The notes beneath the pieces were generated by a model. That model had not been told where the DNA came from. It did not search any database and saw only the letters and a program-made list of their open reading frames with translations. A stretch of DNA of 64,000 nucleotides, taken from positions 2,980-66,979 of the forward strand of contig JAFVWN010000062.1 of the NCBI GenBank assembly GCA_017501645.1. Reading direction: 5' to 3'. The number at the start of each line of letters is the position of its first letter. The stretch's first letter is position 1. Source of the DNA: Clostridia bacterium. GTDB taxonomy: Bacteria; Bacillota; Clostridia; Christensenellales; UBA1242. The position numbers and the translations under genes are program-made. Positions 6,966-18,263 of this stretch are shown in pieces.

Positions 6966-7050
6966 GGGTAGTTTGCAGAGCGGCCAAATGCAGCGGACTG
7001 TAAATCCGCCGACTATGTCTTCGGTGGTTCGAATCCACCACTGCCCACCA
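6966..7050 (+). tRNA. tRNA-Tyr (GUA), long variable arm; integration target of the downstream element
   Basis: Anticodon stem GCGGA/TCCGC, loop CTGTAAA, variable arm GACTATGTCTTCGGT, CCA encoded. Confidence 0.9.
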
Positions 7051-7051
7051 A
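6998..7051 (+). repeat. attL core: 3' 53 nt of tRNA-Tyr plus 1 nt
   Basis: Identical 54-mer CTGTAAATCCGCCGACTATGTCTTCGGTGGTTCGAATCCACCACTGCCCACCAA recurs at 19851-19904. Confidence 0.9.
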
Positions 7052-7145
7052 GTTTTAAAAGTGACTCAATCCTAGAAAATATCTAGCTTTGAGCCACTTT
7101 TCTTTTTGTAAAAATAATTTATTAATTTTACTAAAAATTATGCTT

Positions 7146-7191
7146 TTGGCTAAAATCTGTTGAAAAATTTGGGTCAAAAATTGGGTCAAAA
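7146..7191 (+). repeat. Left-arm repeat TTGGCTAAAA..AAAAATTTGGGTCAAAAATTGGGTCAAAA (candidate integrase arm-type sites)
   Basis: Tandem TTGGGTCAAAA units. The same block recurs at 19745-19780 in the same orientation. Confidence 0.6.
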
Positions 7192-8139
7192 TTCCGGGTA
7201 TAAATTATTATATAATTTTAAGATGTCCTCTTTAGTTATGTTAGGGTCTAATGTCGTGTAAATATCGTTAGTCATAACAATACTTGCGTGTCCCATATAG
7301 TATTGTCTTTCTTTATCAGGAACTCCAAGATAATATAAGTTTGTGCTAAAAGTATGTCTCAAGTCATGAAGTGTCTTACCGTAAATTCCAAGACTGTTTA
7401 TAAAGTTTTTGAAATACCTTGAATAAATATCACTATGAAGTTGGAACATTTCGTCAAAATGTTCGTCAAGAATAGTTTTGAATGCTGGAGATATTTTCAC
7501 ATATCTACGAGCAGAAGCCGTTTTAGTTCCATCAATAAAAATAGTATTGTTCGGTAAAATTTTGACATTTTTAGCCTCTTCTCTGCGACATCCAGTGAGG
7601 AGGTAAAATAAAATCTCATATTTTATAGATGTTTTATCAAGATTATGAATTATTAACTTCTGTTCTTCGAGAGTAAAAGCTTCACCTTTTTTACCTTTAT
7701 TCTTAGGTGCTTGCAAAAATTGACTTATATCTTTTTTTATTAAGTCTTTTTGTAAAGCATATTTGAAAACACCTTTAATGATATGATAAACATATTTTGC
7801 TGTTCTATGCTCTTTGATACTGTTCAAAAAATACTGAAGTTCATCAATTGTAATCTTGTTGATATTTACATGAAATAAGTTTATGTCAAATTTACTGTTT
7901 ATGACTTGGCTGTATCTTATATCTGTTTTGATTTGGTCTTTCTTAAATAAATTATACCATTCAGTTGCTAAAAAATAAAAACTTTTATTTGTTGTTTGAC
8001 CTGCGGTTTTTCCAACAGAAAATTGTTTTATTGCTTTCAACAATTCTTTTTGTGTATTTCTAATAATAGAGTAGGTGGTCTTGTTTTTCATCTTTCGATA
8101 CTCCCATCGACCATCAACTCTTTTTCTTATGTTTTTCAT
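7186..8139 (-). CDS. int: Tyrosine recombinase / phage integrase
   Basis: C-terminal catalytic region with TGCRREE, HDLRHTFST, GHASIVMTNDIYT (R..HxxR..H..Y pattern). Adjacent to the tRNA att site. Confidence 0.9.
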   Translation of the reverse strand: MKNIRKRVDGRWEYRKMKNKTTYSIIRNTQKELLKAIKQFSVGKTAGQTTNKSFYFLATEWYNLFKKDQIKTDIRYSQVINSKFDINLFHVNINKITIDELQYFLNSIKEHRTAKYVYHIIKGVFKYALQKDLIKKDISQFLQAPKNKGKKGEAFTLEEQKLIIHNLDKTSIKYEILFYLLTGCRREEAKNVKILPNNTIFIDGTKTASARRYVKISPAFKTILDEHFDEMFQLHSDIYSRYFKNFINSLGIYGKTLHDLRHTFSTNLYYLGVPDKERQYYMGHASIVMTNDIYTTLDPNITKEDILKLYNNLYPEF

Positions 8140-8276
8140 TTCTTCATCAACTCCTTTATTGGTAGTCTTTGAAGAAACAACTTGAACTTGTGTTTTTATA
8201 ATGTTCTCATCATAATCTGGATTGGTTATTGCGACCGGTTTCCAGTAATCGCTTTTCCCCTGAAAATAAATATCGA

Positions 8277-8308
8277 AGAGTTCGAGCTGTGTTTCGAACT
8301 CTTTTTTT
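8277..8308. terminator. Hairpin plus T7 between the repressor and integrase genes
   Basis: AGAGTTCGA/TCGAACTCT perfect stem. The T-run lies on the + strand, antisense to int. Confidence 0.55.
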
Positions 8309-8348
8309 ATGCTTTTTAAATTATTTAGAAGTTTTTATATATTCCATC

Positions 8349-8699
8349 TTATACTCCAACATTGAATCTGTCGTAGTTTCTTTTTGCTTCCTCTTTTCCG
8401 TCAAGCATGCCTTCTAAGTATGCTTCAGCTTTAAGACATGATAAGTCATCAAACTTAGAAATTATTTTAATTAGATTTTTCTGCGATTGAGTAAGATAAG
8501 CAACATCATTTGTAAACTCTCTACCAACAAGATAATCAAGAGAAACATTGTAATAATCCGCAAGTTTTATTAATGTTTCGATGTTTGGTTCGTTAATTTC
8601 TTTTTCATATCCGTTGTAAGTTGATTCTGCAACATTAAGAATTGAAGCCATTTCTTTTTGTGTCTTTTTTTCGGTTTTTCTTAGTTTTTTCAAATTCAC
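8349..8699 (-). CDS. XRE-family HTH repressor (cI-like)
   Basis: HTH segment TQKEMASILNVAESTYNGYEKE. GTG 8699 sits 9 nt after GGAGG and is preferred over the TTG at 8717 in the ORF track. Confidence 0.8.
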   Translation of the reverse strand: MNLKKLRKTEKKTQKEMASILNVAESTYNGYEKEINEPNIETLIKLADYYNVSLDYLVGREFTNDVAYLTQSQKNLIKIISKFDDLSCLKAEAYLEGMLDGKEEAKRNYDRFNVGV

Positions 8700-8766
8700 T
8701 TTTTTAATCCTCCACAAATAATGTAAATATTTTTTTAAAAAAATTCAAGAAAGTTGTGATTTTTAT

Positions 8767-8796
8767 TTGACAAACTCATAAAATATGAGGTATTAT
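8767..8796 (+). promoter_or_regulatory. Early promoter TTGACA-18-TATTAT with the palindrome CTCATAAAATATGAG in the spacer; flanking TCAAGAAA(G/C)TTG boxes at about 8743 and 8807
   Basis: Divergent from the repressor gene. The palindrome overlaps the spacer, giving a classic operator/promoter layout. Confidence 0.6.
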
Positions 8797-8886
8797 CAAG
8801 TTAATCTTCAAGAAACTTGAGGATTTGGCGTTCCCTTTTTCGCCGACTTAGTTTTTTCATTTGCTAATAATCTCCAATTTATTAGC

Positions 8887-9203
8887 GCGCTGTTCACGAG
8901 GGCATCAGCGGACAAAAGCCCTCTACCAAAGCCCAGGAAAAATAAAAAACCTTAAGAGCCAAATGTTCATTTTATCCTCACTCCTATTTGTATTCTATTG
9001 TTGTTAAAAGGTTTCAACAGAAAAGGGCGTGCAGTTTATGAGAGCATCTGCGTGTCTTAAAAACTCTCTACCAATACAGTCCCTCTTTGAGCAACGGAGG
9101 TTCTGTATGCTCCTTGGGTTTGTGTTGCTCTTTTGATTCTTCCGGGTAGTGACCGACACTCGCTGTTCATGAGGGCATCAGCGATACACAAGCCCTCTGC
9201 CAA
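8887..9203 (+). repeat. Three copies of a ~45-nt pseudoknot-capable motif (8887-8930, 9027-9074, 9161-9203) in the 420-nt early leader
   Basis: Consensus CGCTGTTCAyGAGGGCATCAGCG-N7-8-GCCCTCTrCCAA. Stem 1 is CGCTG/CAGCG and stem 2 is GAGGGC/GCCCTC, interleaved. Copy 2 carries compensatory changes. Confidence 0.7.
9089..9134 (+). terminator. Terminator/attenuator-like hairpin between motif copies 2 and 3
   Basis: GAGCAAC...GTTGCTC outer stem with inner GGAG/CTCC, followed by TTTT. Confidence 0.45.
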
Positions 9204-9222
9204 ATTTAGGAGGAATTAAAAT

Positions 9223-9630
9223 ATGAAAAATATTCAACAAACAATAAATGATTTTACTAGTAAAGCTTTATTTTATAAGTTTCAAGGAGAAGCTGATTTT
9301 TTCTTAAAAGCAAAACCTGTTGTTGATATGATTGAAAAAATAAAAAAGGAAATCGAGCATAAAAAAACCAAAGATTTTGAATTAATCACAAAAGATGCGA
9401 GATGTACTTTTAAAACACGAGCTGAGGCAGAAAAAATTGCTCAAATTCTAGAAAAGTCAGGAATTTCTACAATAATTCTTCCATCAAATAATGCTCCAGA
9501 GCGTTATATATTAAAAAAGTTATTATATGATGAGGAGTCTAAATTAGAAGTAATATTTGAATTCTTAGAATCTCTTGGTGATGATATAGAAAGATTGGAG
9601 AAGAAGGTGTTTGATAATGGAGAAAATTAA
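9223..9630 (+). CDS. Hypothetical protein (element early gene)
   Basis: AGGAGG RBS 8 nt upstream; soluble and charged. Confidence 0.6.
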   Translation: MKNIQQTINDFTSKALFYKFQGEADFFLKAKPVVDMIEKIKKEIEHKKTKDFELITKDARCTFKTRAEAEKIAQILEKSGISTIILPSNNAPERYILKKLLYDEESKLEVIFEFLESLGDDIERLEKKVFDNGEN

Positions 9631-9829
9631 AACACAACTTGAGTATTTTATTGTTGAAACAAAAGACAATTGCTATGTTTTTAAATCTCTTGATTCAGCA
9701 CTTAAAAAATTAAAAAGCTTAATAGCCCTTTTCGGTGTATCAATAATTATTAGACGATACAAACAGATGGAAGTAGAGGAATTTCTATCCAATATATGTT
9801 TAGAAAAAAACATAAGGTTGGAGGAGTAA
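9611..9829 (+). CDS. Hypothetical small protein
   Basis: Overlaps the upstream gene; alternative ATG at 9617. Confidence 0.45.
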   Translation: MIMEKIKTQLEYFIVETKDNCYVFKSLDSALKKLKSLIALFGVSIIIRRYKQMEVEEFLSNICLEKNIRLEE

Positions 9830-9831
9830 TT

Positions 9832-10158
9832 ATGGAAATTCCAAAAGATACTCAATGTAAAATCTGCGATTGGCTTGATGCTATGAGTAAAAAAGTTTCA
9901 ACGGAACGAAATTCTATAAAAAAGCAAGTTGAAAACTCAAAATATATTGGCGGAATCAAATTTGTTTTTGAAGCTGGCGGAAAAGTCGTTTATCGACCAA
10001 AACATAGTCATTCTATTTATTTTAACAATTCAAAAAATAAAATAATCATCAACGAGTTTACAACTAATCAAACAATTGGAGTTCTCCAAATGCTTGATTA
10101 TGCAGGGATTAGAACAAGTTTTACAGATAATGTTTTAACAATAAAGGAGGTTTTATGA
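9832..10158 (+). CDS. Hypothetical protein
   Basis: ATG 9832 follows GGAGGAG and is preferred over the upstream ORF-track start at 9796. ATGA overlap with the next gene. Confidence 0.55.
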   Translation: MEIPKDTQCKICDWLDAMSKKVSTERNSIKKQVENSKYIGGIKFVFEAGGKVVYRPKHSHSIYFNNSKNKIIINEFTTNQTIGVLQMLDYAGIRTSFTDNVLTIKEVL

Positions 10159-12995
10159 GAAAATTTCTAAAATCTATATCTTTATTTTTTATGGTATTGG
10201 CACTGGTGCTAATACCTTTTAGTATTTTTAAAAATACTGAAACTACAGCAGAGGCATCCTTTAATGATTCATATGTTCAAGAGTTATCATTTAAGAATAA
10301 CGCAATATTTGTAACATATGCAAATGAAACTCTTGTTGGTGTAGATAAAGATGGTTATTTTTATAAAATGACTGATGAAGGTGCTTTTAATAAAACAGGA
10401 TATAAGTTCTCAATTTCTTTAAAAGCATTCACTTTAAGTTCTGCGTACTATAAAGGTTCAAACAATTATATTGCATATACAAACAATACAATTGTTATTG
10501 CTGGAACAGACGGAACTAATACAATTCTTTATTATTCAGTCGATACCGGAACAACTTGGGAACAAGTAACTTTAGGAACAAAAACAGTTGCTGGTTATCC
10601 AATCAGTATAATAACAGGAAATGGATATTTTGCTCTAATAACGGCGGTTGTTAATGGCAGTGAAAAATATACTTCTGCAAACATATATTCATCAACAAAT
10701 GGTGCTGACTGGACTCTAGCAACTCCTAATGTTTATCTTGATTACCAATTCTCTTTCAGCAACGGTTATTTCTTTAGAACAGAATATACAACAAATGCGG
10801 ACCCAGTTGTATACTATTCAACAAACTTAAAAGACTGGAGTAGTTTTGTTTCTCCAATAGGTATAATTGCCGGCAACTCTGGATATTCGAATCCTCAACT
10901 TTCAATTTTATATACAAATAACACTTTCTGCATTTTTGGTTTTGACAAAATGTTCACCTCAGCAAGTTTGACTGGAGCATGGAAGCAGGTGGAGATACCC
11001 GCAGTAACACCTTTCAATGTAGAAAATATATTCAAAACTGTACCATATCAAAACGGAGCAATTTTATGTTCGGATGAATATATCTGGTACGCAGATGTAT
11101 CTCTTGATGGCTTGAGCAACTTAAAAATATTAATGTCTAAAGCAATTGATTTTACAATTGAGCAAACAGGAAATGCTTCTATTTACGGAAACACTGTAGC
11201 CGAATCAACAAACAGTCTTGTAATTGGTTTTAACAATTTCTACGGACAAACACTTGATTCAAGTTATAATTTAGCACATTTCAATATTTATAATAAGCTC
11301 GCAAAACACACTGTAACATTCCAGGACTGGAATGGCAATGTAATTTCTTCAGTTGAGGTTGTTGATGGTGAAACTGTTGTTGCTCCAACAAATCCAACAA
11401 GAGAAGGATACACATTCACTTCTTGGAGCGGAGACATCTCTCAAGCAATTACCAAAGATACAACCTTTATTGCTCAATACAGAATCAATGATTGCTCAGT
11501 TTTATTTATTGATTATAACGGTCAAACAATAAAACAAATGTATGTAGAATACGGAACTACTCTTTCAACAAGTGATATTCCAAGGCCAACAAGAGTGGGC
11601 TATCAATTTATTGGTTGGGATAAAGACACAGATGAAGTTATTAAAACAAATACAACTTTTACAGCTCAATACTCACAAGAGGCAAAATTAATTTTAAAAT
11701 ATCCAGCAATCTCTGGAACAGCTGGATTGATTAATCAATTCCATAAAACAACTGTAACAGAAAAAGAGTTTACTTTTAGAGTAGGCGACACAACTCAATC
11801 AGTAGAATATATAGATTTTGTTAATGATGTACTTACTCCATGGTATAACGACTTTACAGATGATGGCGATTACGATTATGATGTAAAGTTTATCTCTTGG
11901 GATAAAGAGGTTCCAAAATATATTTATGAAGACACTGTAGTAACAGCAGTATTTGAGAAGCTTTTAAATGTAAGACTTGAATACTACTCTCAATTAAGAT
12001 TCAAAGTTTCTACAGACAGTTTATATTATTCAACCTATATTGGTTACATGAAAATTGAGAAGCTTGTAACTTCTGGAACAGTAATTAATATTGAAGACTT
12101 TAAGAGAAGAGATGTTGATTATGAAGTTTACAATGCTCACACCGGGGCTTTTTATAACAATCTTGTTGGTTTTGAGTTCTTAGGCTGGAACACAGACATC
12201 TCTCAAGCAATTACTGAAGATACAATAATAAAAGGTAATTATAAAATGCCAACAATCAAAGTGAGAATGTATGATGCCGAAGACTACTTATTCCATGATG
12301 AAGACCAACAAATATCATTCCTCACAATTGAAGATATTATTAATATGATTGATGCTGGTTCAGTCTGGGATTCTTATAAAGAATTATTAAGAAATATGTT
12401 CTTGCTTCGTTGGGGTGAAATTGGAGACCAAATAACAGACAAGCTTGATTTTAACAGTTATGTTCGAGGGATAGGGGAATATCATAATGCTTCAACGCAA
12501 ATATTAACAGGTTATGTTCAAATCAATACGGATAATCCAGAGATTTACGATGGAGTTTTTGGAAGTGCTTCTGCAGAGGTTCAAGAAGGTGATATTTTAC
12601 ACTATCATTCTGGAACAGCAACAGAAAACAACTTAACATATTGGATTAATCCAATTGTTTTCAGTAATAGTCTATACAAACTTGAATGTCATGTAACCTA
12701 CGGAACTGCATTAGATGACGCAGTAAAAACGATTAATAATATTTGGAATAGTATTGCTAGTGTATTCAAATGGATATGGAATTTCATCAAAGAATGGTGG
12801 TGGGTCATTGTTCTTGTGGTGCTTGCAATAATATTCCGTAAGCCTCTTATCGCATTTTTAACAGTGGTCTTTCAAGCAATAGGAAAGTTCTTTAAATGGA
12901 TTGGTAACAAAATAAAATCCGCTTCTAACAAAACAAAGAAGTTGAATAAAGAGCATTCCAAGGCGAAAAAAGATAAAACTTGGAAAGGGAGGTAA
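10155..12995 (+). CDS. Large secreted, C-terminally membrane-anchored surface protein: Asp-box/BNR-like region plus two Listeria-Bacteroides repeats; candidate adsorption (pIII-like) protein
   Basis: Signal peptide MRKFLKSISLFFMVLALVLIPF..AEA. SVDTGTTW and STNGADW Asp-box-like motifs. Two Flg_new-type repeats (VTFQDWNGN..GYTFTSWSGD; VLFIDYNGQ..GYQFIGWDKD). C-terminal TM WWWVIVLVVLAIIF plus a basic tail. Confidence 0.7.
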   Translation: MRKFLKSISLFFMVLALVLIPFSIFKNTETTAEASFNDSYVQELSFKNNAIFVTYANETLVGVDKDGYFYKMTDEGAFNKTGYKFSISLKAFTLSSAYYKGSNNYIAYTNNTIVIAGTDGTNTILYYSVDTGTTWEQVTLGTKTVAGYPISIITGNGYFALITAVVNGSEKYTSANIYSSTNGADWTLATPNVYLDYQFSFSNGYFFRTEYTTNADPVVYYSTNLKDWSSFVSPIGIIAGNSGYSNPQLSILYTNNTFCIFGFDKMFTSASLTGAWKQVEIPAVTPFNVENIFKTVPYQNGAILCSDEYIWYADVSLDGLSNLKILMSKAIDFTIEQTGNASIYGNTVAESTNSLVIGFNNFYGQTLDSSYNLAHFNIYNKLAKHTVTFQDWNGNVISSVEVVDGETVVAPTNPTREGYTFTSWSGDISQAITKDTTFIAQYRINDCSVLFIDYNGQTIKQMYVEYGTTLSTSDIPRPTRVGYQFIGWDKDTDEVIKTNTTFTAQYSQEAKLILKYPAISGTAGLINQFHKTTVTEKEFTFRVGDTTQSVEYIDFVNDVLTPWYNDFTDDGDYDYDVKFISWDKEVPKYIYEDTVVTAVFEKLLNVRLEYYSQLRFKVSTDSLYYSTYIGYMKIEKLVTSGTVINIEDFKRRDVDYEVYNAHTGAFYNNLVGFEFLGWNTDISQAITEDTIIKGNYKMPTIKVRMYDAEDYLFHDEDQQISFLTIEDIINMIDAGSVWDSYKELLRNMFLLRWGEIGDQITDKLDFNSYVRGIGEYHNASTQILTGYVQINTDNPEIYDGVFGSASAEVQEGDILHYHSGTATENNLTYWINPIVFSNSLYKLECHVTYGTALDDAVKTINNIWNSIASVFKWIWNFIKEWWWVIVLVVLAIIFRKPLIAFLTVVFQAIGKFFKWIGNKIKSASNKTKKLNKEHSKAKKDKTWKGR

Positions 12996-13041
12996 GAGTA
13001 AAAATAAAACAACAAAATAAAAAAAAGGAGGAAATACAACC

Positions 13042-13305
13042 GTGAAAAAAGTTTTAATAGGAATTTTAGTAGTATTAGGAATTATTATTGGTGGAGGAGC
13101 AATCGCATATCATACTTCGCCAACATTTAAAGACTGGACTGATAAAAATATTTTAAAATATGAGCAAGTTGTAGATAAAGACGATGAATCTAGTGATGAT
13201 ACAACAGGCGATGATACAACTGGTGACGAAGTTCCTGGTGACAACACTACAGGAGACGAAGTTCCTGGCGATGACACAACTGGTGATGAAACCACTGATG
13301 CGTAG
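13042..13305 (+). CDS. Small membrane protein with an acidic TGDE(VPGD) repeat tail
   Basis: GTG start after AAGGAGG; N-terminal TM helix; tandem coding repeats. Confidence 0.6.
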   Translation: MKKVLIGILVVLGIIIGGGAIAYHTSPTFKDWTDKNILKYEQVVDKDDESSDDTTGDDTTGDEVPGDNTTGDEVPGDDTTGDETTDA

Positions 13306-13318
13306 TTAGGAGGAAATT

Positions 13319-14713
13319 ATGAGGGCTATTTGGAAATTTTTTAAATCTCTACTTGCCCTCTTTGGTTTTGCAATTGTTTTTTGGATTGGAGCATATTTTT
13401 TAGTTCCAGAAGTAAATCAATGGACTAATGAAAATGTTTTTAAAATAGAACAGAATAGCTCAAACAAAGAGGAAGTAGAATCTTTACAAATACAGCTTGA
13501 AGAAAAAGAAGCTGTAATTGTAACCATCAATTCACAGCTTACAGAAGAAAAAAATAATGTAACACAGCTTGAGACTGAAATAGCTGTGCTTACAAGTGAA
13601 AAAGAAACTCTTGAAGCAGACTTTGAAGCTAATAAAGAAGAGCTTGCAGAGGTTAATAGTCTGTTAGAAGAAAAACTTGCTGAATTAAATTCAGCTCAGG
13701 AAACAGTTAATTCTTTGGAAAGTGAATTAGCTTTAAAAGAAGTAGAAATTGCATCTTTGAACCAACAAATTGAAAGATACGAATCTGCTTCAGTAAAAGA
13801 CCCAGATAAACTATATATTGAAGATTTTTTAAACAACGGAAAAATTTATGCGTTCGATGTTGGCAATAATAAATTTTTAATAAGTGCAGAAAGTGGAGAA
13901 ACTGGTGTTTATGTCTTCGATAAAATCAACTATTCAATTAAACAAGTTTTTAAAAGCTTCACCGCTTGGGATTCAGTTTCGCAATTACCGAACGGAAACT
14001 TTATTGTATCTACTGCGAAATCAACTAAATGTGGAGTTTGCGTGTACAATCCGACAGACGATACTTTTGAGCAACTTTCAACAGCTGGTAAAAGTTTTAA
14101 ATTCTTAGCTCAAAAAAGCGATACTGAAGTGTTTGTCGCAGGAAGTATTTTATGTGTTTTAAATCTTGAAACGAAAGAAGTTAAAACAATTCTAACAGGA
14201 GCAACTCTTGATACTTACATGAAGGTTGATGATTATCATGTATTTTCATCTACCAACGGTTCTTTTCAAGGATTGTGGTTCATGAAGGAAGGAAGTGATT
14301 CTGTAACAAAGTTGTCTGGAGTTACAGGTCTACAATATACAGTATCTTTTAAACTAAGTGATGGAAGATATTTGATAAAATCAAGCGTTGGTTTGACTAG
14401 TAATACTCATTTGTTATTAGTCGATTTTGAAACCGCAACAGGTGAGTTATTATCTAAAACAGCACATGAAGAATTTTATAAATTTATTCAAGTTGATAAT
14501 TTTGTTTTAATGTTAAACAAAAGTGGTAACGGTACTTATTATGTAGATGTTTTAAATCTAGATACAAAGACAATTACAGAAAATGAGATTTCTGGAGGTA
14601 TAGATAGTCACGAAGTTTATGATGATTATGTAAAAATCTATTCAAGTAATCCAAATCGTACAGATGTTTATCATATCAGCAGAACCACAGGTGAAGTTAC
14701 AAAAGTTGCTTAG
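13319..14713 (+). CDS. Membrane-anchored coiled-coil protein with a beta-rich C-terminal domain
   Basis: N-terminal TM, ~110-aa heptad-like E/L/K region, then repetitive beta-strand-like sequence. Confidence 0.6.
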   Translation: MRAIWKFFKSLLALFGFAIVFWIGAYFLVPEVNQWTNENVFKIEQNSSNKEEVESLQIQLEEKEAVIVTINSQLTEEKNNVTQLETEIAVLTSEKETLEADFEANKEELAEVNSLLEEKLAELNSAQETVNSLESELALKEVEIASLNQQIERYESASVKDPDKLYIEDFLNNGKIYAFDVGNNKFLISAESGETGVYVFDKINYSIKQVFKSFTAWDSVSQLPNGNFIVSTAKSTKCGVCVYNPTDDTFEQLSTAGKSFKFLAQKSDTEVFVAGSILCVLNLETKEVKTILTGATLDTYMKVDDYHVFSSTNGSFQGLWFMKEGSDSVTKLSGVTGLQYTVSFKLSDGRYLIKSSVGLTSNTHLLLVDFETATGELLSKTAHEEFYKFIQVDNFVLMLNKSGNGTYYVDVLNLDTKTITENEISGGIDSHEVYDDYVKIYSSNPNRTDVYHISRTTGEVTKVA

Positions 14714-14723
14714 GAGACTCTAG

Positions 14724-15026
14724 ATGAAACAGTTTTTTAAAATATTACTCACAGTGTTAAACATTATTAGTTTTATACTTGTTGGCTATATGTCCTTCGA
14801 CTACCTTTCAGCAATCTTCTCTGGAGGAACGGAAGTGATTGGTGTTGCACTTACGCTTCCAATATTCCTGGCTGTAGTTGGAGTAGATTTAGTTCTATCA
14901 ATTATTAACTTAATTATTGGTAAAAAAACACAATCTAAAGAAAAAATATGGTTTAGTGTAGTATTCATATTTTTTGATATATTAACCACTATAACTATAT
15001 TTGCTGGTTTATATTTATTAAATTAA
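14724..15026 (+). CDS. Small polytopic membrane protein (3 TM)
   Basis: AGGAG RBS; strongly hydrophobic. Confidence 0.6.
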   Translation: MKQFFKILLTVLNIISFILVGYMSFDYLSAIFSGGTEVIGVALTLPIFLAVVGVDLVLSIINLIIGKKTQSKEKIWFSVVFIFFDILTTITIFAGLYLLN

Positions 15027-15076
15027 ACAAAAGGAAAAGGCTTACAGAAAGTCTGTAAGCCTTGGGGTTTTTAAAT

Positions 15077-15436
15077 ATGGCAAAAGAAATTAAACGAGGA
15101 CAATTTTATAGTATAAATAATAAAAAAGTTTTTGGCCATAGAGGAAGGGTTGTTTCTGTTAAAAAAAATAAGGTTAAGTTGGTTGCTGTTACGCACTCAA
15201 AAGAAATTGTTAGAAAAAAGAAAATTAAAGGCCTAATTCGAATTAGAAAAGAAAAAACAATACCTTTGTTAAAAAATCCTAATCCTAGTGACGCAAAAAA
15301 AGCTTATGTAGTAAAAAGACCCATACTTGCTAGTAAAAGACAAATTGGAAAGCACCATTCTAATATGTCTGTTACAAATGCTCATGATAAAAGCATTTTT
15401 AGAAAAGTCGGTCGAAAAAAAATCAAAAAAAAATAG
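15077..15436 (+). CDS. Very basic (K/R-rich) small protein, possible nucleic-acid-binding protein
   Basis: ATG 15077 is preferred. Sequence KRGQFYSIN..GHRGRVVSV..VAVTHS followed by a lysine-rich tail. Confidence 0.5.
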   Translation: MAKEIKRGQFYSINNKKVFGHRGRVVSVKKNKVKLVAVTHSKEIVRKKKIKGLIRIRKEKTIPLLKNPNPSDAKKAYVVKRPILASKRQIGKHHSNMSVTNAHDKSIFRKVGRKKIKKK

Positions 15437-15610
15437 ATGGGATTGGTTACCGAAAATAATTCGTACCGGGCCACCTCGTCGACTAGGTCAGTTAGGTGTA
15501 TCAACCATCTATATAATTATTATATGCTAATTAATTAAAAAAGTCAACACTAAATATAAAAAATCATCACAAAGTTGACTTTTTTTAATATAGATGCAGA
15601 GGAGAACTTT

Positions 15611-15823
15611 ATGCAGATTATTCAAATTATATTAATTGTAATTACATTATTAGGTTTATTATGTGGACACTGGCTAGGACCGATGCTTGCAAAGGTTCTC
15701 AATCCAATAATTAATAGTCCCTGGGGAGCAGTTATCACAACAATTGCACTATTAGTTTTAATAATTAACTTAATCAACTGGTTGATTTGTTTAGGAAGAA
15801 TTAATAAAAATGGAAGATATTAA
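15611..15823 (+). CDS. 70-aa two-TM membrane protein (coat/assembly-protein-sized)
   Basis: ATG 15611 after AGGAG; two hydrophobic helices; overlaps the ATPase gene. Confidence 0.55.
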   Translation: MQIIQIILIVITLLGLLCGHWLGPMLAKVLNPIINSPWGAVITTIALLVLIINLINWLICLGRINKNGRY

Positions 15824-17183
15824 AAACTTAAAATATCCAAATAAAGAAGCTTCAATGTTTTGGTATAAGCCAAACTGGAAAGCGAATCTACACATAAGAC
15901 AAGAGCCAATCCTACAGCCATGGCAGATTTTAAAAATGAAGCATAAGCCATGGCGATATTTAGGCTTAGCCCCATGGCAAGACAGAACTCCAGTATTTTA
16001 TTCATTCTCTGGAGATAAGGCGTATGCAATAGCACATACGCTTCCTCTTTTAAGTTTTGCATTTTGGTTTGGATTAATAGCTTTAACTTTAGCGTATCAC
16101 AACCTCCAATCAATTTTGTGGTGGATTCTGGCAGGAACAATAGGTTTCCCTTTTTTCATTCAAGCAATAAATTGTTTGAGACAACTTATTGCAGAAGTTA
16201 GAGTGAAGCACTTTATAGGTTACGGAATGGCCGGCGTTCATGCAATAGTGGTAGACGGTAAAGTAGGGGCAGGAAAAACATCCTCTCTACTTGAAAGTTA
16301 TACAATTTTGGCAAAAATGAGATGGAATCAAATTTGTCATGCGGTGAGGTTGTTACAGCCTTTTGAGGAAGATATTCCATACTGGAGGGCGGATTTAAGA
16401 AAGTCGGCAGAAGAAATACTTGAGACTTATTATTTTTTCTTAGACAGTGGAACAGTTCCTCTTTTATATACTTCTGTACCAGCAATGATTGATGGAATGT
16501 TTACGAATAAACTACAAGCATCTCATTTGATGCAAGAAGAACGATTGCCATATGGTGCAGTAATAATAATTGATGAAAGTGCGTTAGTACTTCCGCAGAG
16601 GTTATATACAGCTCAGCCATACGCATTAATAGAGTTCTTTAAGTTTTTAAGACATGACGGAGACTTTTATGTTGGAGCAACAGAGCAAGACGAAAACAGC
16701 AATCTAATATATTTGAGACGAGCTTGCGGAAAGGTTGTTCATGTCATCGAGCAAGAACACATATTAAAATCAAGATTGTTGCAATGGATATATGATTTTT
16801 TAAACAATCATATAAAAAACATGACACAGAAAAAAGCAGGTTTTTTACATCGTTTTAAAAAGATAATAGACAACTTTGGCTTTCGAAAATATTACTACAA
16901 AGAATATCTTGGTGGTGACGAAGAGAACGGAAGAATCAAATCCTTTGTTGTGAAACCGTCACTTTCAATAAAGTACAATAGTAGGTCATACAAGAATATT
17001 TACAGATGTAAAGATAAGCCATTAAAAGTTTCTACATGGATGAGTCTATATCTAACTGAACAAGAACTCAAAGAGGTTTTCTCTAACGATTTGAAAGACA
17101 TGGCAAAGAGTAAGGTTCAAATCAAGAGAGAAGCAACGGAGCGAAGAATAAATAAAAACAAAGGAGAATCAAATGGAAAATAA
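15810..17183 (+). CDS. Zot / filamentous-phage pI-like P-loop ATPase with an N-terminal membrane domain
   Basis: Walker A VDGKVGAGKTS, Walker B VIIIDESALVLPQR, then LIEFFKFLRHDGDF. This ordering matches the M13 gpI/Zot pattern as I recall it. TM helices at about residues 75-125. Confidence 0.6.
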   Translation: MEDIKNLKYPNKEASMFWYKPNWKANLHIRQEPILQPWQILKMKHKPWRYLGLAPWQDRTPVFYSFSGDKAYAIAHTLPLLSFAFWFGLIALTLAYHNLQSILWWILAGTIGFPFFIQAINCLRQLIAEVRVKHFIGYGMAGVHAIVVDGKVGAGKTSSLLESYTILAKMRWNQICHAVRLLQPFEEDIPYWRADLRKSAEEILETYYFFLDSGTVPLLYTSVPAMIDGMFTNKLQASHLMQEERLPYGAVIIIDESALVLPQRLYTAQPYALIEFFKFLRHDGDFYVGATEQDENSNLIYLRRACGKVVHVIEQEHILKSRLLQWIYDFLNNHIKNMTQKKAGFLHRFKKIIDNFGFRKYYYKEYLGGDEENGRIKSFVVKPSLSIKYNSRSYKNIYRCKDKPLKVSTWMSLYLTEQELKEVFSNDLKDMAKSKVQIKREATERRINKNKGESNGK

Positions 17184-17379
17184 ATTAAAAGTTGGGAAAG
17201 TAAAACCAAAAAATTCTAGTTACATATACACTTTATATGCCTACTTTAGCGAAAAGGGCAAATTTTTATATTTTAAATATGACAACATTATAACTTGCTA
17301 TGTTGATGACATTTTAGAGTTTGCAAGTATCTTTAACTGTGATAAAGAACAATTATATAAACTAGAGCAGTTGATTTAA
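17173..17379 (+). CDS. Hypothetical small protein
   Basis: AAAGGAGA RBS; overlaps the ATPase stop. Confidence 0.5.
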   Translation: MENKLKVGKVKPKNSSYIYTLYAYFSEKGKFLYFKYDNIITCYVDDILEFASIFNCDKEQLYKLEQLI

Positions 17380-17396
17380 TAAAGGAGAAAAATATA

Positions 17397-18263
17397 GTGG
17401 AATCTACAAAACAATTTTATGATAATTTAATTATGTTTTATGAGTCAGCCCCCGCCAGTGAACATACATTGGCACTTATAATTAAAAATCTTAAGGAGTG
17501 CCAGAAAAGGGAAGAGCACTTAAATTCAAAAATTGAAGCAAATGCCAGGGCTGAAGAGTGCTTATTAAGTCAATTTAATTTTGCCAGGGCTGATGCAGAA
17601 TACTATAAAACCGAACTCAAGAGAACGGAAGACCAGTTGCGAAGTGTAAACTTTTCTTCAAGGAGATCTGAAAGAATTGATGCAATCAATGCTGGATTAA
17701 AGAAAGAATGCAGAGAGAAAAAGCATCATGTTGAGTTCTTGCTAAAAAAAATACATGATGAACAAAATCAAATCGCCGACCTAGAAGCAAAACTTGCAGA
17801 GAGTGAAGACAAATGCAACAAACAGTGGTTGCAGATTCAAGCAGATACCGAACACATACAAAGACTAGAACAGCAACTTGCAGAGTTAGAAGTAAAAAAT
17901 GATAAGTTAGGAACAGAATTATGCAATGCTGATAATATTGTAAGTTATTTGCAACAGCAACTTGCAGAGAAAGAGCAAAAAATTGAAAAATTGCAACATT
18001 ATAATGATAGATTAGCACAGGGAATTTATCATAGTTATGGGGAGCATTTTATATTAAAAATAAACCAAGACAAAATATCGTTTGCAGTAGAGCAGTTGAA
18101 ATGTATTTTAAACATCACAGAAAGTATATTTGAAAAAGCATTAAAACAAAGTAGTATTAATCAATCTTTTTATGATGAGATTTTAAACTGCATAGATAAT
18201 CAAATTAAAAGCTTTAGAGGAGGGGAAAAACATAGCTGTAACCAAAGAACAAAAAAAAAGTAA
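17397..18263 (+). CDS. Coiled-coil protein, function unknown
   Basis: GTG start after AAGGAG. Repeated QQLAE(K/L)E heptads. Ends in an A9 run. Confidence 0.6.
   Translation: MESTKQFYDNLIMFYESAPASEHTLALIIKNLKECQKREEHLNSKIEANARAEECLLSQFNFARADAEYYKTELKRTEDQLRSVNFSSRRSERIDAINAGLKKECREKKHHVEFLLKKIHDEQNQIADLEAKLAESEDKCNKQWLQIQADTEHIQRLEQQLAELEVKNDKLGTELCNADNIVSYLQQQLAEKEQKIEKLQHYNDRLAQGIYHSYGEHFILKINQDKISFAVEQLKCILNITESIFEKALKQSSINQSFYDEILNCIDNQIKSFRGGEKHSCNQRTKKK

Follow-up and report, generated by a model that had tools for sequence, protein, structure and literature searches.

A probable family of small H-type pseudoknot RNAs with a CCA-containing tail in integrated phage-like elements

Introduction

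This study describes a repeated pseudoknot in the early leader RNA of an integrated phage-like element, found in 64 kb of DNA from a Clostridia bacterium (contig JAFVWN010000062.1, positions 2,980 to 66,979; hereafter the window, meaning the whole stretch of 64,000 nt). The motif is very probably a real and functional RNA structure, one of a previously undescribed family of 40-46-nt H-type pseudoknots formed on the sense strand. In low-GC bacteria, small integrated phage-like elements carry it, and metagenome assemblies are to date their only source. Two helices, S1 and S2, interleave in each copy, and both keep their complementarity while their sequences change between copies and between elements.

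With this motif comes a compact structured RNA class that has no Rfam model and shows covariation in both pseudoknot helices. The elements that carry it, 10-13 kb long, are barely characterised and almost all of their proteins are orphans. Each distinct copy ends in a U-R-CCA tail (R, purine), which leads to a direct experiment on a question left open by Kosek et al., whether RNase P targets pseudoknots in vivo (PMC12710915). For such an experiment the motif supplies a 45-nt natural candidate substrate with a choice of several stem variants. Should RNase P not be its partner, it would remain a candidate new riboswitch or protein operator controlling the passage from lysogenic to productive expression. 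Its importance is limited by its distribution, which covers four element lineages; pattern scans of GTDB genomes, JGI metagenomes and IMG/VR did not recover the motif.

Results and Discussion

Three pseudoknots in the early leader

The leader, ~418 nt between an early promoter and the first open reading frame (ORF1) of an operon, contains three copies of the pseudoknot. An initial annotation, made from the sequence, had proposed three units here, and all are present on the + strand within 1-3 nt of the positions it gave. Copy 1 (8888..8930, 64.6 bits) begins with S1a CGCTG (8888-8892), loop L1 TTCAC, S2a GAGGGC (8898-8903) and L2 AT, then continues with S1b CAGCG (8906-8910), L3 GACAAAA, S2b GCCCTC (8918-8923) and the tail TACCAAA. 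Copy 3 (9161..9204, 63.8 bits) has the same S1 (CGCTG/CAGCG) and S2 (GAGGGC/GCCCTC) and the tail TGCCAAA. Copy 2 (9030..9075) has S1 TGCAG/CTGCG, S2 GAGAGC/ACTCTC and the tail TACCAAT. The order of parts is S1a (5 nt), L1 (5), S2a (6), L2 (AT), S1b (5), an A-rich L3 (7-10), S2b (6) and the tail T-R-CCAA, over 43-46 nt. S1 (5 bp) and S2 (6 bp) interleave in each copy; the stem sequences of copies 1 and 3 and their reading as an H-type pseudoknot, both proposed before, were confirmed by re-reading the sequence.

Relative to copies 1 and 3, copy 2 exchanges T-A for A-T in S1 and G-C for A-T in S2. These two compensatory changes had also been reported and are real. In addition, copy 2 has one U.G pair and one C.A mismatch, the latter in the last S2 pair, where an orthologous leader (L018) has U-A.

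The units start 142 and 131 nt apart and are separated by non-repeated spacers. A 19-nt degenerate core pattern, allowed up to 3 mismatches, matched only these three sites in 64 kb, where 0.06 were expected by chance. When one unit is shuffled by dinucleotides, 0.1-0.6% of the shuffles contain a perfect interleaved pair of 5+6 bp. A single copy is therefore weak evidence, and the case rests on comparative covariation. Duplex stacking energies are about -4 to -6 kcal/mol for S1 and about -7 to -10 kcal/mol for S2.

Orthologous leaders and diverged copies

Close homologues of the element's repressor led to contigs with the same leader (L002/L003, L018/L019 and L022/L023), giving four leader variants in all. 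In the leader alignment the motif copies are 84-98% identical to the window, the spacers 53-77% and ORF1 79-80% (nucleotide identity). The best conserved part of the locus begins at copy 2, includes the terminator-like hairpin and copy 3, and ends at the ribosome-binding site (RBS) and start codon; it is 89-100% identical, versus 79% for ORF1. The 5' half of the L018 leader has diverged to 53% identity, with copy 1 standing out as a conserved island (84%). S1 of this copy, CGUAG/CUGCG, contains a second T-A to A-T flip and a U.G pair. In copy 2 of L018, U.G is replaced by U-A in the first S1 pair and the C.A mismatch by U-A, which restores the sixth S2 pair. Over 10 distinct orthologous copies 97.3% of the stem cells are paired and 4/11 pairs are changed on both sides, against 33-56% pairing and no both-side changes in slid-register controls.

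Two local peculiarities of these contigs were seen. In L022 (961-1025) and L023, and in no other leader variant, copy 2 has lost its CCAA tail through a 6-nt deletion; it may be dispensable or differently used. The start of L002, an ENA contig, consists of unrelated, G+C-richer DNA (1-585) with an abrupt join to the leader at the transcription-start position; these first ~585 nt are probably a chimeric assembly.

A covariance model, R1, was built from window-type copies only, with S2 as its sole structure, and was run over loci reached through more distant repressor homologues. It identified two copies in L026, with matches in L026/L027 at E=1e-4 to 7e-3. Y1 (L026 6965-6922; also in L027 and L029; 29.7 bits, E=1e-4) is intergenic on the gene strand and reads UGCGG UUAU GAGGGUU AU CCGUA UUUUAAA AACCCUC UACCAG. 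Y2 (L026 6845-6801; also in L027 and L029; 21-25 bits) reads CACAG UUAU GGGAGUU AU CUGUG ... AACUCCC UACCAAU and is followed directly by GAGGAG and ATG. Two more copies were found in L025. X1 (8944-8905, E=0.017), ~13 nt before a Shine-Dalgarno (SD) sequence, reads GGUAG UUUAU AGGGGU U CUACC UAAAA ACCCCU UGCCAAA, and X2 (4941-4904, E=0.09), intergenic on the gene strand, reads AUAG UUUA GGUGGC AU CUAU AAAAA CCACC UACCAAG.

One further copy, Z1 in L037 (AGUUG...CAACU / GGGGA...UCCCC UGCCAAG), came from a script that requires the structure and yields ~7 matches per shuffled data set. Its position lends Z1 credibility, as a 128-aa gene downstream of it and the gene that follows X2 are homologous (31% identity, E=3e-9). 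The copy precedes a hairpin with a T-run. Z1 was the only copy in L037, and a motif scan of other elements with related repressors found none in L033, L035, L036, L039 and L041.

Throughout, the motif occupies leaders or intergenic regions, always on the gene strand, and three copies stand 1-13 nt before an SD. The genes downstream are unrelated orphans, except for the homologous genes after X2 and Z1. The initial annotation had recorded neither the occurrence of the motif outside early leaders nor the conserved U-R-CCA tail as a tRNA-like signature.

In both X2 (L025 4941-4943) and Z1 (L037 3015-3017) the knot starts 0-3 nt past the stop codon of the preceding gene, and both elements encode a Rep protein. 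At this position, a terminating ribosome would melt S1, and this could couple upstream translation to the state of the knot. A hairpin upstream of Y1 (L026 7000-7045, - strand), CGCTG-GAACAGA-CAGCG, has the S1 arms of the window copies and is followed by CCCCACCTATCAAAG; it may be a decayed third copy that lacks S2a.

Covariation and conserved features

Since S1 pairing is absent from R1, covariation in S1 is an unbiased test. The S1 arms of the X and Y copies have new sequences that are still complementary (GGUAG/CUACC, UGCGG/CCGUA, CACAG/CUGUG). In the model-aligned set of 15 distinct copies (alignment A5) 97.5% of the stem cells are paired and 9/11 pairs are changed on both sides. The covariation score was 0.515 versus 0.25 in shuffles, none of which reached 0.515 (0/500), and slid registers gave 33-54% pairing with 0-1 both-side changes. 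A manual alignment that includes Z1 has 155 Watson-Crick, 5 G.U and 5 mismatched cells, or 97% pairing, with at least two Watson-Crick pair types at 10/11 positions. G.U pairs outnumber C.A mismatches in this alignment (5 vs 3), and the sense strand is therefore mildly favoured as the folded strand. The refuting test set by the initial annotation, homologues without covariation, came out for structure: orthologous and diverged copies alike keep both helices.

The reach of this comparison is a point against our interpretation. The search model that found the X and Y copies already contained S2 pairing, and the scan that yielded Z1 required pairing. A single repressor family gave access to all loci, and the sample consists of four lineages and 15 distinct copies.

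A duplex-DNA site, for the repressor or another protein, and a chance repeat are hardly credible. Operator palindromes do adjoin the region. Against such sites, the interleaved inverted repeats co-vary by complementarity and do not keep a half-site sequence, the orientation always follows transcription, and in other elements copies lie far from promoters. Covariation and strand bias thus contradict the duplex-DNA alternative that the initial annotation had named, and the three pattern matches against 0.06 expected speak against chance.

The unpaired parts are conserved as well. The tail U-(A/G)-C-C-A-(A/G) follows S2 directly as a single strand in 15/15 distinct copies; the deleted copy 2 of L022/L023, outside these 15, is the one exception. 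The G-C pair that closes S1 is invariant (15/15). L1 occurs as UUCAC, UUCAU, UUUAU, UUAU and UUUA (consensus UU(Y)AY; Y, pyrimidine). L2 is nearly invariant as AU, with 0-2 nt across copies, and L3 has 3-11 nt with A's at its end. S1 has 5 bp and S2 6-7 bp. S2a is always G-rich and SD-like and S2b C/U-rich and anti-SD-like, and most copies have U immediately 5' of S2a.

Comparison with known RNAs

The initial annotation could not place the motif in a known RNA class, and covariance-model searches bear this out. No Rfam 15 family overlapped any copy in the window at E<=10 or at the gathering threshold, or any copy in L018, L025, L026 and L037 at E<=1. Using blastn, the leader and the L026 region gave AT-rich chance matches or none against GenBank phages. 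Relaxed scans of 185,579 GTDB species genomes, JGI metagenomes and IMG/VR, all pattern-based, returned chance matches only, with stems that were not complementary or that lay inside ORFs; the GTDB scan gave no match from the window's own genome, or at least from its element. A search of IMG/VR for related loci with the P-loop protein of the window's element, the 505-aa gene of L025, the X2/Z1 gene family and the Rep of L037 found nothing. Outside ENA and Logan assemblies the distribution, with four element lineages found, may be narrow.

Type III toxin-antitoxin systems (ToxIN, CptIN, TenpIN) were considered. In their antitoxin RNAs (ToxI, CptI, TenpI), too, pseudoknot units are repeated between a promoter and a protein gene; a hairpin restricts read-through, and the setting is a mobile element. 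The window units differ in being 131-142 nt apart with unrelated spacers and one copy past the hairpin, and the motif also precedes unrelated genes in other elements. These systems were ruled out, as there is no head-to-tail array of 34-45-nt repeats and no toxin: ORF1-3 had no Pfam or PADLOC match to ToxN, CptN, TenpN or AbiF, and a PDB sequence search was also empty.

The pistol self-cleaving ribozyme combines a P1 hairpin with a loop pseudoknot. The motif resembles it in a 5-bp hairpin whose loop starts with UU, is G-rich and pairs with a downstream C/U-rich segment past an A-containing linker, and in occurring in phage contexts in several copies. It differs from pistol in having no P2/P3 helices and no cleavage-site junction, in the lack of conservation after the tail, and in matching no Rfam model.

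Other candidates were rejected on single grounds. A CRISPR repeat mimic (solitary repeat unit or RNA anti-CRISPR) was discarded because the scanned GTDB genomes, JGI metagenomes and IMG/VR held no arrays, only single chance matches. A stimulatory pseudoknot for -1 frameshifting does not fit copies that are non-coding, leader indels between variants and 5' flanks without X XXY YYZ, the slippery heptamer that such an element would need 5-8 nt upstream within an ORF. L1 was ruled out as a T-loop mimic, as it has no A at the fifth position, and pairing of the tail with upstream UUGG strings was ruled out since these strings are not conserved between variants.

A possible substrate of RNase P

Our favoured reading, which we put forward tentatively, is that the knot mimics a tRNA acceptor arm and would be cleaved by RNase P in loop 1. 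Among the clues to a mechanism the tail is the most specific. The RNA subunit of RNase P pairs with the RCCA of pre-tRNAs. S2 stacked on S1, a coaxial arrangement that we infer, would give a helix of 11-13 layers ending in R-CCA, like the minihelix of the tRNA acceptor and T arms. A stack of ~12 bp, as from a 7-bp acceptor and a 5-bp T stem, corresponds in every copy to S2 of 6-7 bp plus S1 of 5 bp. Kosek et al. found in vitro that an H-type pseudoknot is a substrate of RNase P only if an RCCA trailer follows helix 2, that the cut falls in loop 1 at the 5' end of helix 2 and is fastest with U at N-1, and that type B RNase P RNA cuts an H-type pseudoknot too (PMC12710915).

The closest known structures are the tRNA-like structure of turnip yellow mosaic virus and the biotin-aptamer pPK with a GCCAC trailer (PMC12710915). 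The motif shares the H-type fold with these. A purine and CCA come after the 3' strand of helix 2, loop 1 leaves the residue 5' of helix 2 unpaired, often as U, and the stack approximates the length of the acceptor/T arm. Unlike them, the motif carries its CCA inside an mRNA leader or intergenic region with an extra U before R-CCA, no T, D or anticodon domain adjoins, and its carriers are DNA phage-like elements of bacteria.

In the proposed scheme host RNase P would use the tail as its docking site and make its cut in L1, at or beside the 5' end of S2. The leader or polycistronic RNA would be cut at each copy, with the 5' end of the downstream RNA held in an S2 hairpin. At copy 3 and at the SD-adjacent copies elsewhere this hairpin would stand just upstream of a free SD and yield a processed, 5'-protected, translatable cistron. 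At copy 2, cleavage or the binding of a factor beside a bistable hairpin could also shift read-through. A host partner would suit the gene content: in the comparisons made, the repressor and the integrase are the only proteins detectably common to the motif lineages, which favours a host factor or a metabolite as the partner over a phage protein. The related-repressor elements that lack the motif also count for a host rather than a phage factor.

Several features of the knots weigh against the RNase P reading. R-CCA is present in 15/15 copies with one U between S2b and R; in the engineered substrate RCCA comes directly after the helix (PMC12710915). With the extra U, the helix would end in a U.U or C.U mismatch (A-U in X2 only), or else the register would be shifted by one. 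CCA stands inside the RNA and not at a 3' end, and there is no T-loop equivalent. RNase P would not obviously need the conserved L1 (UUYAY), the L2 (AU) or the A after CCA, which could instead form a pocket for a ligand or protein. Simple processing also leaves three copies per leader unexplained.

The fuller proposal is doubtful. It holds that the knots are the first natural bacterial-virus 'pseudoknot plus RCCA' RNAs used by RNase P in vivo. In small inovirus-like elements they would act as punctuation, cutting the leader and the polycistronic RNA and leaving hairpin-capped cistrons. We liken this to the tRNA punctuation of mitochondria. A more exotic variant would make the multi-copy leader a decoy for host enzymes or defence toxins that recognise the CCA ends of tRNAs.

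A possible factor-responsive switch and the bistable region after copy 2

The main rival to RNase P cleavage, itself unlikely, is a switch in which the knot serves as an aptamer or operator for a small molecule or RNA-binding protein. Binding would stabilise S2; in the unbound state S2b of copy 3 would pair with the SD, and the hairpins beside copy 2 would shift between terminator and alternative. Repeated sites would make control of the early operon cooperative and multi-level. Copy 3 ends 3 nt upstream of the SD, and in a nested-only fold its S2b segment CCUCU does pair with the SD sequence GGAGG. The switch is also consistent with the 1-13-nt distance of three copies from an SD, with the T-run hairpins after copy 2 and Z1, and with the 89-100% identity of the stretch from copy 2 to the RBS, where ORF1 has 79%.

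Size and topology bring the motif near the small H-type pseudoknot riboswitches (preQ1-I, SAM-II/SAM-V, guanidine-III, NAD+-II), which likewise have 35-55 nt, a first helix of 5 bp, an A-rich third loop in the minor groove and an SD or terminator adjoining. The conserved unpaired nucleotides of L1, L2 and the tail would suit a binding pocket. The differences are that here the SD lies outside helix 2, 1-13 nt beyond the tail, that helix 2 is long (6-7 bp), L2 only 2 nt and a conserved 3' tail extends past the knot, and that up to three spaced copies precede unrelated phage orphans and match no covariance model. A riboswitch of the preQ1-I/SAM-II type, where the SD or terminator strand would belong to the ligand-stabilised helix and the genes would share a function, was rejected, as the SD lies beyond the tail and the downstream genes, those after X2 and Z1 apart, are unrelated. 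Guanidine-III was rejected as well: it has the strings ACGAGG and GACAA in common with the motif, but at different structural positions, and its covariance model gave no match.

More generally, several points tell against a switch. No Rfam riboswitch model matches, the SD is outside the knot, and S2 (about -10 kcal/mol) is far stronger than the pairing of S2b with the SD. The downstream orphans form no coherent pathway, no phage protein apart from the repressor and integrase is common to all motif-bearing elements, and the expression platforms vary between copies.

The terminator-like hairpin (9089..9134, + strand) pairs GAGCAAC (9089-9095) with GTTGCTC (9124-9130) over 7 bp, with TTTT after it. 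No leader variant departs from the others in either stem arm or in the T-run, and the interior is large and structured. Of the terminator-like hairpin noted here in the initial annotation, the stem and T-run are present; a simple terminator scan does not call the hairpin, because its loop exceeds 8 nt. An alternative, anti-terminator-like hairpin (9076..9123, + strand; repeat D7, inverted repeat I14) pairs GAGCAACGGA (9089-9098) with UCUGU-A-UGCUC (9102-9112) and is enclosed by CCC/GGG and ACAG/UUGU. The two folds are mutually exclusive. The alternative is the local minimum free energy (MFE) structure at -16.6 kcal/mol versus -13.6 for the terminator, and the balance varies between leader variants.

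The segment directly after copy 2, ACAGTCCCTCT (9076-9086), resembles the L3/S2b segment ACAAGCCCTCT of copy 3 (9188-9198) and includes the S2b-like UCCCUCU (9080-9086). It is nearly invariant across leader variants, with one C/T difference in L002/L003. ACAGTCCCTCT is an extra S2b-like arm that could compete for the GAGGG arms or pair with GAGG (9097-9100).

Processive antitermination, in which the nascent knot would bind RNA polymerase and allow read-through of 9089-9134 and later terminators, is quite improbable. It has in its favour that copies 1 and 2 are promoter-proximal and upstream of the terminator-like hairpin, and that Z1 also precedes a T-run hairpin. The put RNAs of HK022 are comparable as cis-acting structured RNAs in a phage early leader upstream of a terminator. 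They consist of two stem-loops, with one such RNA per operon; the present motif is a pseudoknot, abuts SDs, occupies internal intergenic sites and has no Rfam match. Copy 3, Y2 and X1 come after or without terminators and abut an SD. This option, raised in the initial annotation, fits poorly with the set as a whole: a terminator-like hairpin follows at only 2/8 positions, and 3 have an SD just downstream.

The position of copies just upstream of SDs, at the heads of cistrons, could also be read as that of a passive stabiliser or roadblock, which would stop 5'-to-3' decay of the RNase J1 type or shield the transcript with neither cleavage nor ligand. Both helices are stable, an A-rich L3 is typical of compact pseudoknots, and several copies per leader would act as successive blocks. 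This reading leaves the invariant U-R-CCA tail and the conserved L1 unexplained, and we know of no precedent for exonuclease-resistant pseudoknots in bacteria; we regard it as improbable.

Element backbones

Unrelated backbones, at least two of them, carry the motif. The P-loop protein (64% identity) and other genes are common to the window type and the L026/L027 type. L025 and L037 have only the repressor and integrase in common with them. Both of these encode Viral_Rep, and L037 also encodes Zot; its Rep is ~29% identical to Inoviridae Rep proteins. Protein family scans detected no Rep or Zot in the window's element, and none was detectable in the L026/L027 type.

Inoviruses package the strand of mRNA sense. 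For the Rep-bearing relatives it is conceivable that the motif acts as a single-stranded DNA (ssDNA) structure, such as the minus-strand origin or packaging signal of a filamentous (rolling-circle) phage. The Viral_Rep genes of two relatives, the Zot of one and its Inoviridae-like Rep point this way, and the gene-strand bias fits the packaged-strand sense as well. The window's element, for which an ssDNA origin or packaging role had been suggested, gives this no support, as no Rep was detected, and Rep and Zot are equally lacking from the L026/L027 type. Several copies per genome, their position directly before SDs and the tolerance of five G.U pairs also tell against an ssDNA structure. The motif was not found in the Bajarodino inovirus genomes, published Inoviridae genomes with a related Rep (~29% identical). 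As an account of the family, an ssDNA role is very improbable.

Leader, ORF1 and host element

The early promoter (8767..8796, + strand), TTGACA-18 nt-TATTAT, matches the consensus at 11/12 positions, in line with its earlier identification ahead of the leader. It contains the palindrome CTCATAAAATATGAG (8775-8789), a likely operator. The leader has 42% G+C versus 32% for the window. MFE folds place two hairpins at its 5' end (8808..8844, + strand): the palindrome TCAAGAAACTTGA (8808-8820, + strand) and GGCG-N10-CGCC (8827-8844, + strand). The L018 equivalent of the second has a different sequence, AAGCC-N10-GGCTT, which retains a hairpin followed by TTTT; by these sequences, predicted hairpin structure near the leader 5' end is conserved between the window and L018. 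A long-range 'anti-RBS' pairing of 8966-8986 with 9207-9227 was set aside as AT-rich and weakly conserved.

The SD AGGAGG (9208-9213, + strand) and ORF1 (ATG at 9223) together span 9208..9630 on the + strand. ORF1, the first operon gene, encodes an orphan of 135 aa with just one other full-length protein cluster among 5.8 billion proteins. HMMER over 1.84 billion cluster representatives found no other full-length relative and only two weak partial matches, and ORF1 belongs to no Pfam, PHROG or PADLOC family. A homologue search with ORF2 showed it to be an orphan also, so no further leaders could be reached through these two genes. The AF2 (AlphaFold2) model of ORF1 was unusable, with a predicted local distance difference test (pLDDT) score of 51.

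The element (6998..19904, 12.9 kb, no strand assigned) is bounded by an exact 54-bp direct repeat, the 3' part of tRNA-Tyr, with copies at 6998-7051 and 19851-19904. Inside it are a tyrosine integrase gene (7186-8139, - strand) and the HTH_3 repressor gene (8349-8717, - strand), which is divergent from the leader. The operon behind the leader encodes the orphans ORF1-3, a membrane-anchored 946-aa protein with Listeria-Bacteroides repeats, and a 457-aa P-loop protein. All tRNA genes of the window encode CCA (7/7).

The 457-aa membrane protein (15810-17183) combines N-terminal membrane segments with a Walker A motif (GKVGAGKTS) and falls into no Pfam, PHROG or PADLOC family. Besides its 64% identity to the L026/L027 proteins, it is 37% identical to a protein in L033, and elements of this type possibly use it as their ATPase for assembly or export. 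An 87-aa ORF (13042-13305) has a signal-anchor-like N-terminus and acidic tandem repeats (TTGDEVPGD...), with weak relatives in L018, L026 and L027. The tandem motif AAATTTGGGTCAAAAATTGGGTCAAAA occurs at 7163-7191 and 19751-19782, just within each end of the element, and these putative sites probably bind the integrase (arm-type) or an excisionase. Outside the element, a 728-aa protein (22468-24654) carries HTH_3 at its N-terminus; its long C-terminal part is uncharacterised.

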